From assembly GCF_009931435.1 (NCBI RefSeq), contig NZ_CP043414.1: 64,000 nt of DNA. One strand, written 5' to 3'. The stretch comes from Escherichia coli. GTDB taxonomy: Bacteria > Pseudomonadota > Gammaproteobacteria > Enterobacterales > Enterobacteriaceae. The notes under the pieces were generated by a model that was not told the DNA's origin, searched no databases, and saw nothing but the letters and a program-made list of their open reading frames with translations. Both the position numbers and the translations under genes were made by a program. This document shows, in pieces, positions 13,190-20,198 of the stretch. How positions within the stretch are numbered: the first letter of the stretch is position 1; each line of letters starts with the position of its first letter.

Positions 13190-13283
13190 TGACTTCGCTC
13201 AGGGTGCCGGTCTGGCACCCTGACTTGCAACTCCCGCCGAAATCCTGCAAAGTCTGGCTGCAAGTCTGACAGGGCAACTATTT

Positions 13284-13853
13284 ATGAAACGACTTATTGT
13301 GGGCATCAGCGGTGCCAGCGGCGCGATTTATGGCGTGCGTTTATTACAGGTTCTGCGTGATGTCGCAGATGTTGAAACGCATCTGGTAATGAGCCAGGCC
13401 GCGCGCCAGACCTTATCCCTTGAAACGGATTTCTCCCTGCGTGATGTGCAGGCATTAGCCGATGTCACGCACGATGCGCGCGATATTGCCGCCAGCATCT
13501 CTTCCGGTTCTTTCCAGACGTTGGGGATGGTGATTTTACCCTGTTCAATCAAAACCCTGTCCGGCATTGTGCATAGCTATACGGATGGCTTACTGACCCG
13601 TGCGGCAGATGTGGTGCTGAAAGAGCGTCGCCCGCTGGTGCTCTGCGTGCGTGAAACACCGTTGCACTTAGGCCACCTGCGTTTAATGACTCAGGCGGCA
13701 GAAATCGGTGCGGTAATTATGCCTCCCGTTCCGGCATTTTATCATCGCCCACAATCCCTTGATGATGTGATAAATCAGACGGTTAACCGTGTTCTTGACC
13801 AGTTTGCGATAAATCTACCCGAAGATCTCTTTGCCCGCTGGCAGGGCGCATAA
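13284..13853 (+). CDS. ubiX: Flavin prenyltransferase UbiX
   Basis: 189-aa ORF; flavoprotein motif GISGASGAIYG. Confidence 0.9.
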   Translation: MKRLIVGISGASGAIYGVRLLQVLRDVADVETHLVMSQAARQTLSLETDFSLRDVQALADVTHDARDIAASISSGSFQTLGMVILPCSIKTLSGIVHSYTDGLLTRAADVVLKERRPLVLCVRETPLHLGHLRLMTQAAEIGAVIMPPVPAFYHRPQSLDDVINQTVNRVLDQFAINLPEDLFARWQGA

Positions 13854-13861
13854 CTCCGCTG

Positions 13862-13884
13862 TTGCCCTGTTTCAGGGCAATTTT
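13862..13884 (+). terminator. Rho-independent terminator after ubiX
   Basis: ttgccctg-ttt-cagggcaa hairpin followed by tttt. Confidence 0.6.
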
Positions 13885-14044
13885 GCAACCGCGATCAAAT
13901 CCTCAACATTTTGTTCCTGCCATTCAATCTAAACGCTGCGATCCAACCGCCATACCTGCTATCTTCAACTTCAGGACAATAATGCAACGTCTTATTAACA
14001 TATTTAACGTTGAATGTTACTGTTGTCGTCAAGATGGCATAAGA

Positions 14045-14060
14045 CCTGCATGAACGAGCC
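14045..14060 (+). promoter_or_regulatory. Candidate sigma54 (-24/-12) promoter of argT
   Basis: tggcat-aagac-ctgca fits the TGGCAC-N5-TTGCA spacing, about 58 bp upstream of the argT ATG; argT is nitrogen-regulated in enterics. Confidence 0.45.
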
Positions 14061-14117
14061 TGCAAACACACAACACAATACACAATATAAAAAAGCCATT
14101 TCACTTGAGGGTTATGT

Positions 14118-14900
14118 ATGAAGAAGTCGATTCTCGCTCTGTCTTTGTTAGTCGGGATTTCCGCAGCAGCTTCCAGCTACGCGGCACTGCCGGAGACGGT
14201 ACGTATCGGAACGGATACCACCTATGCACCGTTCTCATCGAAAGATGCCAAAGGTGACTTTGTTGGCTTTGATATCGATCTCGGTAACGAGATGTGCAAA
14301 CGGATGCAGGTGAAATGTACCTGGGTTGCCAGTGACTTTGACGCGCTGATCCCCTCACTGAAAGCGAAAAAGATCGACGCCATTATTTCGTCGCTCTCCA
14401 TTACGGATAAACGTCAGCAGGAGATTGCCTTCTCCGACAAACTGTACGCCGCAGACTCTCGTCTGATTGCTGCCAAAGGTTCACCGATTCAGCCAACGCT
14501 GGATTCACTGAAAGGTAAACATGTTGGTGTGCTGCAGGGATCAACCCAGGAAGCGTATGCCAATGATAACTGGCGCAGTAAGGGTGTCGATGTGGTGGCC
14601 TATGCTAACCAGGATTTGGTCTATTCCGATCTGGCTGCAGGACGCCTGGATGCCGCTCTGCAAGATGAGGTTGCTGCCAGCGAAGGTTTCCTCAAGCAAC
14701 CTGCCGGTAAAGATTTCGCTTTTGCAGGCCCTTCAGTGAAAGACAAAAAATACTTCGGTGACGGCACCGGTGTCGGGCTACGTAAAGATGATGCTGAACT
14801 GACGGCTGCGTTTAATAAGGCGCTTGGCGAGCTGCGTCAGGACGGCACCTACGACAAGATGGCGAAAAAGTATTTCGACTTTAATGTCTACGGTGACTGA
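14118..14900 (+). CDS. argT: Lysine/arginine/ornithine-binding periplasmic protein
   Basis: 260-aa ORF with signal peptide; about 70% identical to the adjacent hisJ paralog. Confidence 0.9.
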
Positions 14901-15117
14901 TACGTCGCAGGGAAGCTGTACCTGATGGAATGATCATGGTGCACGCCAGGTTTGTTGCACTATCGTGGTGCATTAAAATGCATACTTAAGCATTTTTAAT
15001 GAAAAATAATACGTCTAACGGGGCGGGATATTTTGCCTTGATGGTCAATTTTATGGCACGATAAGTGTAACAAACCTGTAAATATTCCCTATAAAAAGAC
15101 TGTCAGTTGAGGACATT

Positions 15118-15900
15118 ATGAAAAAACTGGTGCTATCGCTCTCTCTGGTTCTGGCCTTCTCCAGCGCAACGGCGGCGTTTGCTGCGATTCCGCAAAACAT
15201 CCGCATCGGTACCGATCCGACCTATGCGCCATTTGAATCAAAAAATTCACAAGGTGAACTGGTTGGCTTCGACATCGATCTGGCGAAGGAATTGTGCAAA
15301 CGCATCAATACGCAATGTACGTTTGTCGAAAACCCGCTGGATGCGTTAATCCCGTCCTTAAAAGCGAAGAAGATTGACGCCATCATGTCATCGCTTTCCA
15401 TTACGGAAAAACGTCAGCAGGAAATTGCCTTCACCGACAAACTGTACGCTGCCGACTCTCGTCTGGTAGTGGCGAAAAATTCCGACATTCAGCCGACAGT
15501 CGAGTCGCTGAAAGGCAAGCGCGTAGGCGTATTGCAGGGCACCACCCAGGAGACGTTCGGTAACGAACACTGGGCACCAAAAGGCATTGAAATCGTCTCT
15601 TATCAGGGGCAGGACAACATTTATTCTGACCTGACTGCCGGACGTATTGATGCCGCATTCCAGGATGAGGTCGCCGCCAGCGAAGGTTTCCTCAAACAAC
15701 CCGTCGGTAAAGATTACAAATTCGGTGGCCCGTCTGTTAAAGATGAAAAACTGTTTGGCGTAGGTACCGGCATGGGTCTGCGTAAAGAAGATAACGAATT
15801 GCGCGAGGCACTGAACAAAGCCTTTGCCGAAATGCGCGCTGACGGTACTTACGAGAAATTAGCGAAAAAGTACTTCGATTTTGATGTTTATGGTGGTTAA
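15118..15900 (+). CDS. hisJ: Histidine-binding periplasmic protein
   Basis: 260-aa ORF with signal peptide ([22 protein letters not shown]); followed by hisQMP. Confidence 0.9.
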
Positions 15901-15924
15901 TCGCCATCGGTGAAAGAAAGCCCG

Positions 15925-15948
15925 CTCCCTTCGGGTAACCGGAGGGAG
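15925..15948 (+). other. Intercistronic RNA hairpin between hisJ and hisQ
   Basis: ctcccttcgg-gtaa-ccggagggag: 10-bp stem (one G-U) with a GNRA-type loop. Confidence 0.6.
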
Positions 15949-15989
15949 ACAAGAGGCGGTAATTCACCACACACGACAGGACAGGCAGC

Positions 15990-16676
15990 ATGTTGTATGG
16001 GTTTTCAGGTGTTATTTTACAGGGTGCGCTCGTCACGCTGGAGCTGGCGATCAGCTCTGTAGTGCTCGCTGTAATCATCGGTTTAATTGGCGCTGGCGGT
16101 AAGCTCTCGCAAAATCGGTTTTCGGGACTGATTTTTGAAGGGTATACCACGCTGATTCGTGGCGTGCCGGATTTAGTGTTGATGCTGCTGATTTTCTACG
16201 GTTTGCAGATTGCGCTAAACACGGTGACGGAGGCGATGGGCGTCGGGCAGATTGATATCGATCCGATGGTCGCAGGTATTATCACGCTCGGTTTTATCTA
16301 CGGTGCTTACTTCACCGAAACGTTTCGTGGCGCGTTTATGGCAGTGCCAAAAGGACATATAGAGGCGGCAACGGCGTTTGGTTTTACTCGTGGGCAAGTG
16401 TTTCGGCGGATTATGTTTCCGGCGATGATGCGTTACGCCCTGCCAGGCATTGGCAACAACTGGCAGGTGATCCTCAAATCTACCGCCCTGGTTTCGTTAC
16501 TTGGCCTGGAAGATGTGGTCAAAGCCACGCAACTGGCAGGCAAAAGTACCTGGGAACCGTTCTATTTCGCCATCGTCTGTGGCGTGATTTACCTGGTTTT
16601 CACCACCGTTTCCAATGGTGTGCTGCTGTTCCTTGAGCGCCGCTACTCCGTGGGTGTGAAGAGGGCTGACCTGTGA
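15990..16676 (+). CDS. hisQ: Histidine/basic amino acid ABC transporter permease
   Basis: 228-aa hydrophobic ORF; stop overlaps the hisM start. Confidence 0.9.
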   Translation: MLYGFSGVILQGALVTLELAISSVVLAVIIGLIGAGGKLSQNRFSGLIFEGYTTLIRGVPDLVLMLLIFYGLQIALNTVTEAMGVGQIDIDPMVAGIITLGFIYGAYFTETFRGAFMAVPKGHIEAATAFGFTRGQVFRRIMFPAMMRYALPGIGNNWQVILKSTALVSLLGLEDVVKATQLAGKSTWEPFYFAIVCGVIYLVFTTVSNGVLLFLERRYSVGVKRADL

Positions 16677-17389
16677 TCGAAATCTTACATGAATACTGGA
16701 AACCACTGCTGTGGACCGACGGTTATCGCTTTACTGGCGTGGCGATCACCCTGTGGCTGCTGATTTTGTCGGTAGTGATAGGCGGAGTCCTGGCGCTGTT
16801 TCTGGCGATTGGTCGCGTCTCCAGCAATAAATACATCCAGTTTCCAATCTGGTTATTTACTTATATTTTTCGCGGTACACCGCTGTATGTTCAATTGCTG
16901 GTGTTCTATTCCGGCATGTACACGCTGGAGATTGTTAAGGGTACCGAGTTCCTTAACGCCTTTTTCCGCAGTGGCCTGAATTGTACTGTGCTGGCGCTGA
17001 CGCTTAACACCTGTGCTTACACCACCGAGATTTTTGCCGGAGCAATCCGTTCGGTACCGCACGGAGAAATTGAAGCCGCCAGAGCCTATGGCTTTTCGAC
17101 CTTTAAAATGTATCGCTGCATTATTTTGCCTTCAGCGCTGCGTATTGCGTTACCGGCCTACAGTAATGAAGTAATCCTGATGCTGCACTCTACTGCGCTG
17201 GCGTTTACGGCCACGGTGCCGGATCTGCTGAAAATAGCTCGTGATATTAACGCCGCCACGTATCAACCTTTTACCGCCTTCGGTATCGCCGCGGTGCTCT
17301 ATTTAATCATCTCTTATGTCCTGATCAGTCTGTTCCGCAAAGCGGAAAAACGCTGGTTGCAGCATGTGAAACCTTCTTCAACGCACTGA
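16673..17389 (+). CDS. hisM: Histidine/basic amino acid ABC transporter permease
   Basis: 238-aa hydrophobic ORF, paralogous to hisQ. Confidence 0.9.
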
Positions 17390-17396
17390 GAATACG

Positions 17397-18170
17397 ATGT
17401 CCGAGAATAAATTAAACGTTATCGATTTGCACAAACGCTACGGCGAACACGAAGTGCTGAAAGGGGTCTCACTGCAAGCGAATGCCGGTGATGTCATAAG
17501 TATCATCGGATCGTCGGGATCGGGGAAAAGTACCTTTCTGCGCTGCATTAACTTCCTCGAAAAACCGAGCGAAGGATCGATCGTCGTTAACGGCCAGACG
17601 ATCAATCTGGTGCGCGATAAAGACGGTCAACTCAAAGTCGCCGATAAAAATCAGCTGCGCTTACTGCGCACACGCCTGACGATGGTATTCCAGCACTTCA
17701 ATCTCTGGAGCCATATGACGGTGCTGGAAAACGTCATGGAAGCGCCGATTCAGGTGTTAGGCCTGAGCAAGCAGGAAGCGCGCGAGCGGGCGGTGAAGTA
17801 TCTGGCGAAAGTCGGGATAGACGAACGTGCGCAGGGGAAATACCCGGTGCATCTGTCCGGTGGTCAGCAACAGCGTGTTTCCATCGCGCGGGCGCTGGCG
17901 ATGGAACCGGAAGTTTTACTGTTTGATGAACCTACCTCGGCGCTCGATCCTGAACTGGTAGGCGAAGTGCTGCGTATTATGCAGCAACTGGCAGAAGAGG
18001 GAAAAACCATGGTGGTGGTGACTCACGAAATGGGCTTTGCTCGCCATGTTTCTACTCACGTCATTTTTCTCCATCAGGGGAAAATAGAGGAAGAAGGCGC
18101 GCCGGAGCAGTTATTTGGCAACCCGAAAAGCCCTCGTCTGCAACAGTTCCTTAAGGGATCGCTGAAATAA
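17397..18170 (+). CDS. hisP: Histidine/basic amino acid ABC transporter ATPase
   Basis: 257-aa ORF; Walker [13 protein letters not shown] signature [15 protein letters not shown], Walker [12 protein letters not shown]. Confidence 0.95.
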
Positions 18171-18177
18171 CTCCCCC

Positions 18178-18207
18178 TCCGGTGGCTAACGCTGCCGGAG
18201 TATTTTC
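18178..18207 (+). terminator. Terminator-like hairpin after hisP
   Basis: ctccgg...ccggag stem followed by a T-rich tract. Confidence 0.45.
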
Positions 18208-18366
18208 AAGGGAAATTTGCGAGTCCGTTTCCGCTGAAATGTAAAAGTTGCAGTCCGCTAAAAATACTTCTGAATTCGCTGTCCAAAGATAAAAACTGCC
18301 TGCTGCATTGGGTGTAAATCGTGGTTATTGTCGCGTCATCTTAAATTTGAGGGGTGACGGAACGCC

Positions 18367-19257
18367 ATGACAATATCGACAACTTCCACGCCGCATGATG
18401 CGGTATTTAAATCTTTTTTACGCCATCCAGACACCGCGCGGGATTTTATTGATATTCATCTTCCCGCGTCGCTGCGCAAACTGTGTGATTTAACGACGCT
18501 CAAACTGGAACCAAACAGTTTTATTGATGAAGATCTGCGGCAATATTATTCCGACCTCTTGTGGTCTGTGAAAACGCAGGAGGGAGCGGGTTATATTTAT
18601 GTGGTGATAGAGCACCAAAGTAAGCCGGAGGAATTAATGGCTTTTCGCATGATGCGCTATTCCATCGCGGCGATGCAAAACCATCTGGATGCAGGCTATA
18701 AAGAGCTTCCATTGGTGATCCCAATGCTGTTTTATCATGGTTGCAGAAGTCCTTATCCTTATTCACTCTGCTGGCTTGATGAATTTGCCGAGCCTGCTAT
18801 AGCCCGCAAAATATATTCATCGGCTTTTCCGCTGGTGGATATTACCGTGGTGCCGGATGACGAGATTATGCAACATCGCAAAATGGCGCTGTTGGAGTTA
18901 ATTCAGAAACATATTCGTCAGCGCGATCTGTTGGGATTAGTCGACCAAATTGTTTCGCTGCTAGTTACAGGGAACACTAATGACAGACAGCTAAAAGCCC
19001 TGTTTAATTACGTATTACAAACGGGAGATGCCCAGCGTTTCCGTGCATTTATTGGTGAGATAGCGGAACGAGCACCACAAGAAAAGGAGAAACTGATGAC
19101 CATTGCTGACAGATTACGTGAAGAAGGCGCAATGCAGGGCAAACACGAAGAAGCTCTGCGTATTGCTCAGGAGATGCTGGAAAAAGGATTTGACCACGAA
19201 GTCATCCTGACGCTGACCCGACTTTCACCAGACGACCTAATCGCGCAAAGCCACTAA
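18367..19257 (+). CDS. rpnB: Rpn-family (YhgA-like, transposase_31 / PD-(D/E)xK) recombination-promoting nuclease
   Basis: 296-aa ORF; N-terminal nuclease-like core (D...VIEHQSK) and a charged helical C-terminal tail; position matches yfcI/rpnB. Confidence 0.8.
19096..19257 (+). CDS. Candidate nested in-frame small ORF (53 aa) within the rpnB 3' end
   Basis: Strong SD aaggag (19084-19089) spaced 6 nt from an in-frame ATG at 19096; would encode [53 protein letters not shown]. Confidence 0.35.
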
Positions 19258-19304: not shown

Positions 19305-20198
19305 TCAGTGAACAACATCCGCCAGCGCTTCTTCTAAATCGTACCAGCGAAACGCAAAACCCGCTTCTTCCAGCCGTTTAGGCAATGCTCGTTGTCCACC
19401 TAATACCAGTACTGAAGATTCGCCCATTAACAGTCGAATAGCGGTCGCGGGGACGCGCAAAATGGCCGGGCGATGCAGCGCATGACCGAGCGCATGGGCA
19501 AATTGTTCATTGCGTACCGGGTAGGGCGAAACCATATTAAACGGCCCGCGCAGCTCGTTATCCAGCAGCCAGAGAATACCGTTGACCATATCATCGATAT
19601 GAATCCAGGCCAGATACTGCCGACCGGAGCCAATCGGCCCGCCCAGGCCAAGACGAAACGGCGGCAGCATTTTACCGAGGATCCCGCCGTCCGGTGCCAG
19701 CACCACGCCGGTACGCAGCAGGCACACACGTGTTTTGTCGCTTTGCGCCCGACAGGCAATCTCTTCCCAACGAGCGCAGAGTTTGTGGGTAAATTCGTTA
19801 TGCGGCGGTTCCTCTTCGGTAACCACCACTTCACCTAAGTCGCCATAATAGCCCGTTGCCGAACCGGAAATGAGTACCGACGGCGGCGTGTCGCTGGCAT
19901 TAATTACATCGACCAGTTTTTGCGTGATATTCCAGCGGCTTTGGCAGAGACGATCTTTTTGCTCGTGAGTCCAGCGTTTATCGGCAATCGGTTCTCCAGC
20001 CAGGTTGATTACCGCATCAACGCCATTGAGGTTGCTTTGATCTGCAAGCCCTTGCCATAGTGTCACCCGGGGGCCGAGAGCGGAACTGGCTTTCTGCGGG
20101 TTACGTGTCACTACCGTGATTTGATGGCCCAGCTCCAGCAAACGTGGAATCAAATGGCGACCAATTAATCCCGTCCCTCCGGTGATCACTATGTTCAT
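19305..20198 (-). CDS. yfcH: NAD-dependent epimerase/dehydratase-family protein (TIGR01777-like)
   Basis: 297-aa ORF; Rossmann motif [12 protein letters not shown]. Confidence 0.8.

Follow-up and report, generated by a model that had tools for sequence, protein, structure and literature searches.

A short intercistronic hairpin between hisJ and hisQ of Escherichia coli as a probable 3' protective structure, in a spacer filled by different stem-loops across Enterobacteriaceae

The genes of histidine transport lie on the plus strand of the window, that is, the whole 64,000-nt stretch of E. coli DNA (contig NZ_CP043414.1) that was analysed. Between 11.6 and 19.3 kb of the window, the gene order is purF, ubiX, argT, hisJ, hisQ, hisM, hisP and rpnB. 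The features around the hisJ-hisQ boundary are collected in Table 1. Of 5426 complete E. coli genomes, 5425 matched a 701-nt probe over this boundary, which is 97.7% identical to K-12 and 99.7% to a goat isolate. The spacer itself is present once per genome in 5425 of the 5426 genomes, at 99% identity or more in 4399, and is 100% identical to that of K-12, whereas identity is 97.7% over the surrounding 701 nt; the spacer is therefore more conserved than the flanking codons. Identity of at least 99% across all 701 nt (15600-16300) is reached in just 4 of 5425 E. coli genomes, which makes the source strain somewhat unusual.

Table 1. Features at the hisJ-hisQ boundary (window positions)
Feature	Position	Strand	Description	Basis
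hisJ CDS	15118..15900	+	Histidine-binding periplasmic protein; upstream cistron, stabilised	260-aa ORF; annotation in K-12 and the closest genome
hisJ stop codon	15898-15900	+		
hisJ-hisQ intercistronic spacer	15901..15989	+	89 nt	ORF ends
Extended structure	15909..15968	+	Outer helices around the core hairpin in the unprocessed transcript	MFE of the spacer
Core hairpin	15925..15948	+	Proposed 3'-exonuclease barrier	Fold; Dar & Sorek S6 Table; covariation in 39 sequences
Single-stranded tail	15949..15954	+	6 nt, ACAAGA; published Term-seq end of the stable hisJ RNA at 15954	S6 Table sequence identity
CA-rich stretch	15963..15989	+	Nearly invariant (TTCACCACACACGACAGGACAGGCAGC), with the hisQ ribosome-binding region	Conserved across genera (alignments A2, A3, A6)
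hisQ CDS	15990..16676	+	Permease; leading cistron of the hisQMP segment, which is less stable	228-aa ORF; annotation

The core hairpin reads CTCCCTTCGG-GTAA-CCGGAGGGAG, with the 5' arm at 15925-15934, the loop at 15935-15938 and the 3' arm at 15939-15948. It starts 24 nt past the hisJ stop codon, and hisQ begins 41 nt beyond the stem. The original prediction had described a 10-bp stem with a GUAA loop in the 89-nt gap between the two genes, and the sequence, the ORF ends and the fold all agree with this description: the stem consists of 10 contiguous base pairs, including one U·G wobble (15931·15942), and the GUAA loop fits the GNRA pattern. The calculation of folding energy, which had been proposed as a check, returned a minimum free energy of -18.6 kcal/mol, with the hairpin occupying 0.92 of the ensemble (z = -4.23) and none of 200 dinucleotide shuffles folding as well. 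Two weaker outer helices, 15920-15924/15950-15957 and 15909-15914/15963-15968, surround the core in the fold of the spacer and bring the best enclosed hairpin to -30.3 kcal/mol, and the predicted fold leaves the ribosome-binding region of hisQ (15969-15989) unpaired. On the opposite strand, the core folds more weakly because the U·G pair turns into a C·A mismatch there. Downstream of the hairpin, the tail ACAAGAGGCG lacks a T-run, with no T among the 8 nt past the stem, and a terminator scan of the plus strand made no call at the hairpin site. An intrinsic (Rho-independent) terminator was thus rejected, since the hairpin is GC-rich but is followed by no U-tract. The plus strand of the window has 22 hairpins of comparable class, where shuffled sequence yields about 3, so most of them are non-random, although they are not rare.

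Several other structures were noted in the same region. A hairpin at 13199-13223, in the TCAGGGTGCCGG-TCT-GGCACCCTGA region between purF and ubiX, folds at -19.5 kcal/mol, starts 10 nt past the purF stop and has no U-tract behind it (CTTGCAACTC); judged by this predicted fold, it may be another intercistronic protective structure. The argT-hisJ intergenic region (14898-15120) holds a 217-nt spacer that folds at -75.1 kcal/mol (z -5.6), carries a 15-nt inverted repeat (14947-14961 / 15064-15078) around about 100 nt, and differs from K-12 by a 3-nt indel and two substitutions. Within it, TGCACTATCGTGGTGCA (14956-14972) resembles an NtrC site, and TGGCACGATAAGTGTA (15054-15069) resembles the -24/-12 pattern of a sigma-54 promoter. 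Beyond the permease genes, 7 nt past the hisP stop, a hairpin at 18177-18200 (CTCCGGTGGC-TAAC-GCTGCCGGAG) is followed by TATTTTCAAG and is likely the operon terminator.

Membership in a known repeat or RNA family was also considered for the hisJ-hisQ hairpin. The REP consensus was taken to be GCCKGATGCGRCGY-N5-RCGYCTTATCMGGCCTAC, and a search of the whole window with up to 3 mismatches yielded no match, nor is the hairpin at all like this consensus in sequence; a search for the hairpin itself, again with up to 3 mismatches, found only its single copy in the window. Membership in the REP or BIME class was accordingly rejected on the missing consensus match and on the single copy per genome in 5425 E. 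coli genomes, and a dispersed repeat family was rejected on the presence of one copy per genome and per window. An Rfam scan of 13800-18500 at E <= 10 returned nothing at the hairpin site.

Published transcriptome data bear directly on this boundary. In E. coli BW25113, whose spacer, as in K-12, is identical in sequence to that of the window, Dar & Sorek 2018 (PLoS Genet 14:e1007354) recorded time courses of RNA decay under rifampicin together with RNA-seq and Term-seq data. In their S3 Table, hisJ|hisQ appears as a pair that decays differentially within the operon hisP-hisM-hisQ-hisJ-argT, the upstream gene being the stabilised one. For hisJ over hisQ, they give a half-life ratio of 3.72, without a standard deviation, and a ratio of 5.83 +/- 2.81 for steady-state mRNA; their re-analysis of the Moffitt 2016 data in the same table gives a half-life ratio of just 1.39. 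In the S6 Table of the same study, hisJ|hisQ is among 26 E. coli "3' protective structures", with a Term-seq 3' end at 2419431 (BW25113). The upstream sequence given there, GGCTAATCGCCATCGGTGAAAGAAAGCCCGCTCCCTTCGGGTAACCGGAGGGAGACAAGA, is reported to fold into a 10-bp stem with a 4-nt loop at -19.9 kcal/mol, and the 60-nt published sequence ends in ...CTCCCTTCGGGTAACCGGAGGGAGACAAGA / ...GGAGGGAGACAAGA. As the spacer is identical to that of K-12, the published 3' end corresponds to window position 15954, 6 nt past the stem. Two of the observations that had been proposed to decide the matter, a mapped RNA 3' end at the hairpin and a step in RNA-seq coverage across it, are thus already available for BW25113, the former as the Term-seq end and the latter as the steady-state ratio. 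According to Dar & Sorek 2018, structures of this kind lack U-tracts, and bicyclomycin-sensitive termination at such sites is not significant; their analysis had left out any operon known to undergo Rho termination or containing an internal intrinsic terminator. The histidine transporter is also named by these authors among the ABC systems in which the gene of the binding protein is selectively stabilised. In Salmonella SL1344, their S5 Table gives a hisJ/hisQ mRNA ratio of 4.77 and places the 3' end directly past the second REP of the spacer.

Further RNA ends and structures from these sources fall elsewhere in the window or operon. The weak folX|yfcH "3' protective structure" of the S6 Table of Dar & Sorek 2018 (-10.6 kcal/mol) corresponds, with 2 mismatches, to window 20052-20099 on the minus strand, inside yfcH. 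In the portion of the Adams et al. 2021 tables that was available, bicyclomycin-sensitive (Rho-dependent) 3' ends are recorded inside argT (2427233) and hisP (2423859). The same portion, which possibly lacks the full list of 3' ends, contains no entry for hisJ or hisQ and none near 2425950. It also records a very abundant RNA 3' end 34 nt 5' of argT (K-12 2427825, minus strand), which these authors assign to the class "upstream ORF"; by its offset from the argT start at 14118, this end lies at about window 14084.

To place the hairpin in an evolutionary frame, loci were collected across Enterobacteriaceae by a HisQ-based scan, which gave 80 loci, one per species, and every hisJ-hisQ spacer was extracted. 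Spacer lengths range from 57 to 289 nt, and a strong stem-loop is present in all 80. In the 60 distinct non-REP spacers, the best enclosed hairpin ranges from -17 to -33 kcal/mol, and a U-tract behind the hairpin was found in none. The median contiguous stem measures 9 bp, compared with about 5.5 in dinucleotide shuffles, of which 281 of 6000 (4.7%) reached the observed length. The stems themselves fall into distinct types: CUCCCUUCGG in Escherichia, CUCCCUCCUGC in some Citrobacter, CCCCUCCC in Enterobacter, Lelliottia, Kosakonia and others, CCAUCGCGCGC in Klebsiella and Raoultella, CCCAUCG with a variable top in Kluyvera, and GCGCCCCGG in Atlantibacter, with additional types in Pluralibacter, Pseudocitrobacter and Superficieibacter. 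Many genera carry a simple hairpin alone, with no extended helix.

Sampled E. coli variants are changed in the loop or the outer helix, and none of them in the 10-bp stem; the loop is GCUA at the E. coli locus L004, GUAU in E. coli TUM13754 and AAGAGC in E. albertii, while other genera have 3-9 unrelated nucleotides. Given this variation within Escherichia, the GNRA identity is incidental and not a conserved property, and the emphasis that had been laid on the GNRA loop, although true of the window sequence, does not carry over to the homologues.

Covariation was evaluated in two sets of spacers. For the Klebsiella/Kluyvera/Pluralibacter type, 19 spacers were aligned with MAFFT over a 12-pair stem. 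In this set, 88.9% of the cells are paired, against 30-55% when the partners are slid; both sides have changed in 8 of the 12 pairs, and the covariation score of 0.47 (0.05-0.17 when slid) was reached by none of 500 shuffles. For the Escherichia/Citrobacter/Enterobacter type, MAFFT set the 3' arms of Escherichia and Enterobacter one column off and RNAalifold recovered part of the stem, and the 39 sequences were realigned with a covariance model. Fitting to the model structure pushes the pair counts of this alignment upward; 92.8% of its cells are paired, both sides have changed in 9 of the 14 pairs, and its covariation score was reached by none of 500 shuffles. The outer helix 15920-15924/15950-15957, in whose 3' strand the mapped end at 15954 falls, also covaries between the Escherichia/Citrobacter and Enterobacter types (UA/CG, GC/CG), and this covariation of the inner of the two outer helices may reflect a single evolutionary event. 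Counts of G·U versus A·C over the two alignments (22 vs 16 and 16 vs 6) at best weakly favour the sense strand. Taken as comparative sequence evidence, the covariation supports selection on an RNA structure across Enterobacteriaceae.

Two individual spacers depart from these patterns. In E. coli TUM14697 (NZ_CP128888.1), an IS4-like element, ISEc13, is inserted within the hairpin at the equivalent of 15930/15931, between the 5' arm and the loop, so that just TCGGGTAACCGGAGGGAG... is left beside hisQ; this is a natural disruption allele. In a genome labelled Citrobacter freundii M-21, the spacer is 289 nt long (2212-2500), and opens with an Atlantibacter-type hairpin (GCGCCCCG...CGGGGCG) followed by an extra, highly structured insert of about 190 nt (-105 kcal/mol overall). 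The HisQ of this locus is just 88% identical to the query, which may cast doubt on the species label.

Salmonella and many Citrobacter lack the simple hairpin and carry one or two REP elements (…GCCTTATCCGGCCTAC…) in its place; the inserts of both genera contain ...CTTATCCGGCCTAC.... Conserved flanks bound the slot, with GATAAAGCCC on the upstream side and AAAAGAGGC…CACCACACACGACAGGACAGGCAGCATG on the downstream side. A REP pair in the hisJ-hisQ intercistronic region of Salmonella typhimurium was reportedly described by Higgins and colleagues in 1982 (Nature 298:760) and by Stern, Prossnitz and Ames in 1988 (Mol Microbiol 2:141). The REPs found here in Salmonella and Citrobacter are this classical hisJ-hisQ REP locus, and the E. 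coli hairpin is their counterpart in position and, by the Term-seq data, in function, without being a REP. The contents of the slot thus comprise at least five unalignable, lineage-specific hairpins together with captured single or paired REPs, which is a turnover of stems.

The downstream part of the spacer is subject to another form of control. Miyakoshi et al. 2021 reported that the small RNA GcvB represses a hisJ-hisQ intra-operonic fusion via its R1 seed. The CA-rich stretch at the 3' end of the spacer is probably the site of this repression of hisQ. A duplex between K-12 GcvB R1 and the spacer is predicted at 15955-15994 with -24.1 kcal/mol, a value that 6% of random windows equal; because this is just marginally above random windows, the placement on the CA-rich stretch is a matter of inference. 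Prediction with full-length GcvB gave a long duplex with the spacer that was no better than background.

These lines of evidence converge on the interpretation that the hairpin is, with good probability, a 3' protective structure between two cistrons, carried by the sense (mRNA) strand, which acts as an exonuclease barrier and lengthens the life of hisJ mRNA. It displays the marks of the protective stem-loop class that were tested, namely stability at the 3' boundary of hisJ, the lack of a U-tract and a structure under selection. In the proposed mechanism, argT/hisJ-hisQMP would be transcribed as a polycistron, and the hisQMP portion would be cut endonucleolytically, presumably by RNase E, somewhere 3' of the hairpin, a cut that GcvB pairing at the ribosome-binding region of hisQ may help. 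PNPase and RNase II, which degrade in the 3'-to-5' direction, would then work their way across the weak outer helices until the GC-rich 10-bp stem halted them, a few nucleotides short of it on the 3' side. What remains would be a translatable hisJ mRNA with its end at about 15954, outliving hisQMP, and the outcome would be hisJ mRNA several-fold above hisQMP mRNA, contributing to a large excess of the binding protein over the membrane transporter. Among type I ABC importers, the binding protein is in 10-200-fold excess (PMC12094219). That the hairpin is the cause of the stabilisation we infer from what is, in E. coli, a correlation, and the acting nucleases and the site of the initiating cleavage are likewise conjectural. 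The central claim of the original prediction, that an intercistronic barrier to 3' exonucleases raises hisJ over hisQMP, is therefore supported by the Term-seq end, the mRNA ratio, the half-life ratio and the covariation; it falls short of proof because the half-life ratio of 3.72 comes without a standard deviation, the Moffitt-derived ratio is 1.39 and causality in E. coli is correlative.

An alternative source of the difference would be partial termination or attenuation at or just past the hairpin, either by a non-canonical hairpin-dependent route or by Rho-dependent termination with subsequent trimming back, so that less hisQMP is made. A steady-state ratio (5.83) that exceeds the half-life ratio (3.72, with no standard deviation; 1.39 from the Moffitt data) would leave room for this or for another mechanism, and trimmed Rho-dependent ends likewise sit just past stable hairpins (PMC6061677). 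Against this stand the lack of a U-tract behind the stem, in the window as in the homologous spacers, and the start of hisQ just 41 nt past the stem, a distance that offers Rho little untranslated RNA on which to load. Dar & Sorek 2018 had moreover excluded known terminators and saw no significant bicyclomycin effect at these sites, and the available tables of Adams et al. 2021 give bicyclomycin-sensitive ends in hisP and argT but none at hisJ-hisQ. Since the half-life datasets disagree (3.7 vs 1.4) and half-life and abundance differ, partial termination keeps a small probability and is considered unlikely.

It is less likely still that the structure chiefly serves hisQ, by keeping its initiation and GcvB region single-stranded, or that hisQMP is uncoupled from hisJ by RNase III-type processing at the extended, interrupted helix of about 21 bp. 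The ribosome-binding region at 15969-15989 is indeed unpaired in the predicted fold and nearly invariant, GcvB regulation of hisQ via the spacer has been published, and the outer helix covaries. The mapped 3' end, however, lies directly behind the core stem, as an exonuclease block predicts; many genera have only the simple hairpin and no extended helix; REP elements, which are known 3' stabilisers, substitute at the same position; and evidence of RNase III cleavage is lacking. The least credible reading, with a very slight chance of being right, is that of a functionless relic or a DNA-level element, such as a degenerate REP, the remnant of a mobile element or a protein-binding palindrome. 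REPs do fill the same slot in Salmonella and Citrobacter, and an IS4-family element sits inside the hairpin in one E. coli strain, but the window has no REP consensus match with up to 3 mismatches and the hairpin is single-copy per genome. Compensatory changes keep the pairing across genera, the U·G pair suits RNA on the sense strand only, and an RNA 3' end maps to the hairpin.

If the hairpin is an exonuclease barrier for hisJ mRNA, its arrangement with the CA-rich stretch allows a further, rather doubtful suggestion. The spacer might be an evolutionarily modular switch of two parts, a slot between conserved flanks where unrelated stem-loops would have taken each other's place again and again with their task unchanged, and an invariant CA-rich GcvB site, in which a GcvB-triggered cut frees the hairpin-capped hisJ mRNA. 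The coupling of GcvB to the release of this mRNA by way of the hairpin is speculation; if true, GcvB would set the HisJ:HisQMP ratio instead of simply repressing the operon.

The protective reading explains how one promoter can yield far more periplasmic binding protein than membrane transporter, with a small RNA structure setting the relative lifetimes of the mRNAs. This principle has been known since the 1980s from malEFG and from Salmonella's operon for histidine transport. The E. coli hisJ hairpin is itself an already known element, catalogued in 2018, and confirming it brings nothing biologically new; the comparative data across Enterobacteriaceae are the only addition, and one of modest use. 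These indicate that position is conserved and not sequence, with unrelated hairpins and domesticated REP elements interchangeable in the spacer, which makes the hisJ-hisQ spacer a clean case, provided by nature, of selection that acts solely on RNA structure and a convenient system for asking how strong a stem must be to halt exonucleases.

The hairpin can finally be set beside systems that are already understood. A Rho-independent terminator likewise ends in a GC-rich stem-loop at the RNA 3' end, but no U-tract stands behind the hisJ hairpin (ACAAGAGG), and transcription must go on into hisQMP. In the gal operon, the hairpin at the 3' end of galE stops exonucleolytic trimming and gives a stable promoter-proximal mRNA and polar expression, as proposed for hisJ; there, according to PMC11925234, precursor 3' ends have been shown to come from RNase E cleavage as well as from Rho termination, whereas for hisJ the initiating cut by RNase E is presumed. 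The malE-malF REP stabiliser (Newbury et al. 1987, via PMC5927463) also follows a binding-protein gene that comes first in an ABC-importer operon, and there the 3' stem-loop blocks 3'-5' exonucleases after endonucleolytic cleavage, so that the mRNA of the binding protein accumulates (PMC5927463), which is the reading favoured for hisJ. The malE-malF structure consists of REP sequences and is backed by direct mutational evidence, whereas the hisJ hairpin of E. coli contains no REP and its causal role is putative. The REP pair of Salmonella typhimurium shares both the operon and the position between the flanks GATAAAGCCC ... AAAAGAGGC, and it resembles the E. coli hairpin in behaviour, with hisJ mRNA 4.8 times as abundant as hisQ mRNA and a 3' end past the structure; it differs in belonging to the dispersed REP family, whereas the 24-nt hairpin of E. 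coli is unique. The closest likeness is to the 26 "3' protective structures" of Dar & Sorek 2018, one of which is the E. coli hisJ hairpin itself, with the same sequence, fold and 3' end; most of these structures sit inside the downstream ORF, whereas the hisJ|hisQ hairpin is intergenic.
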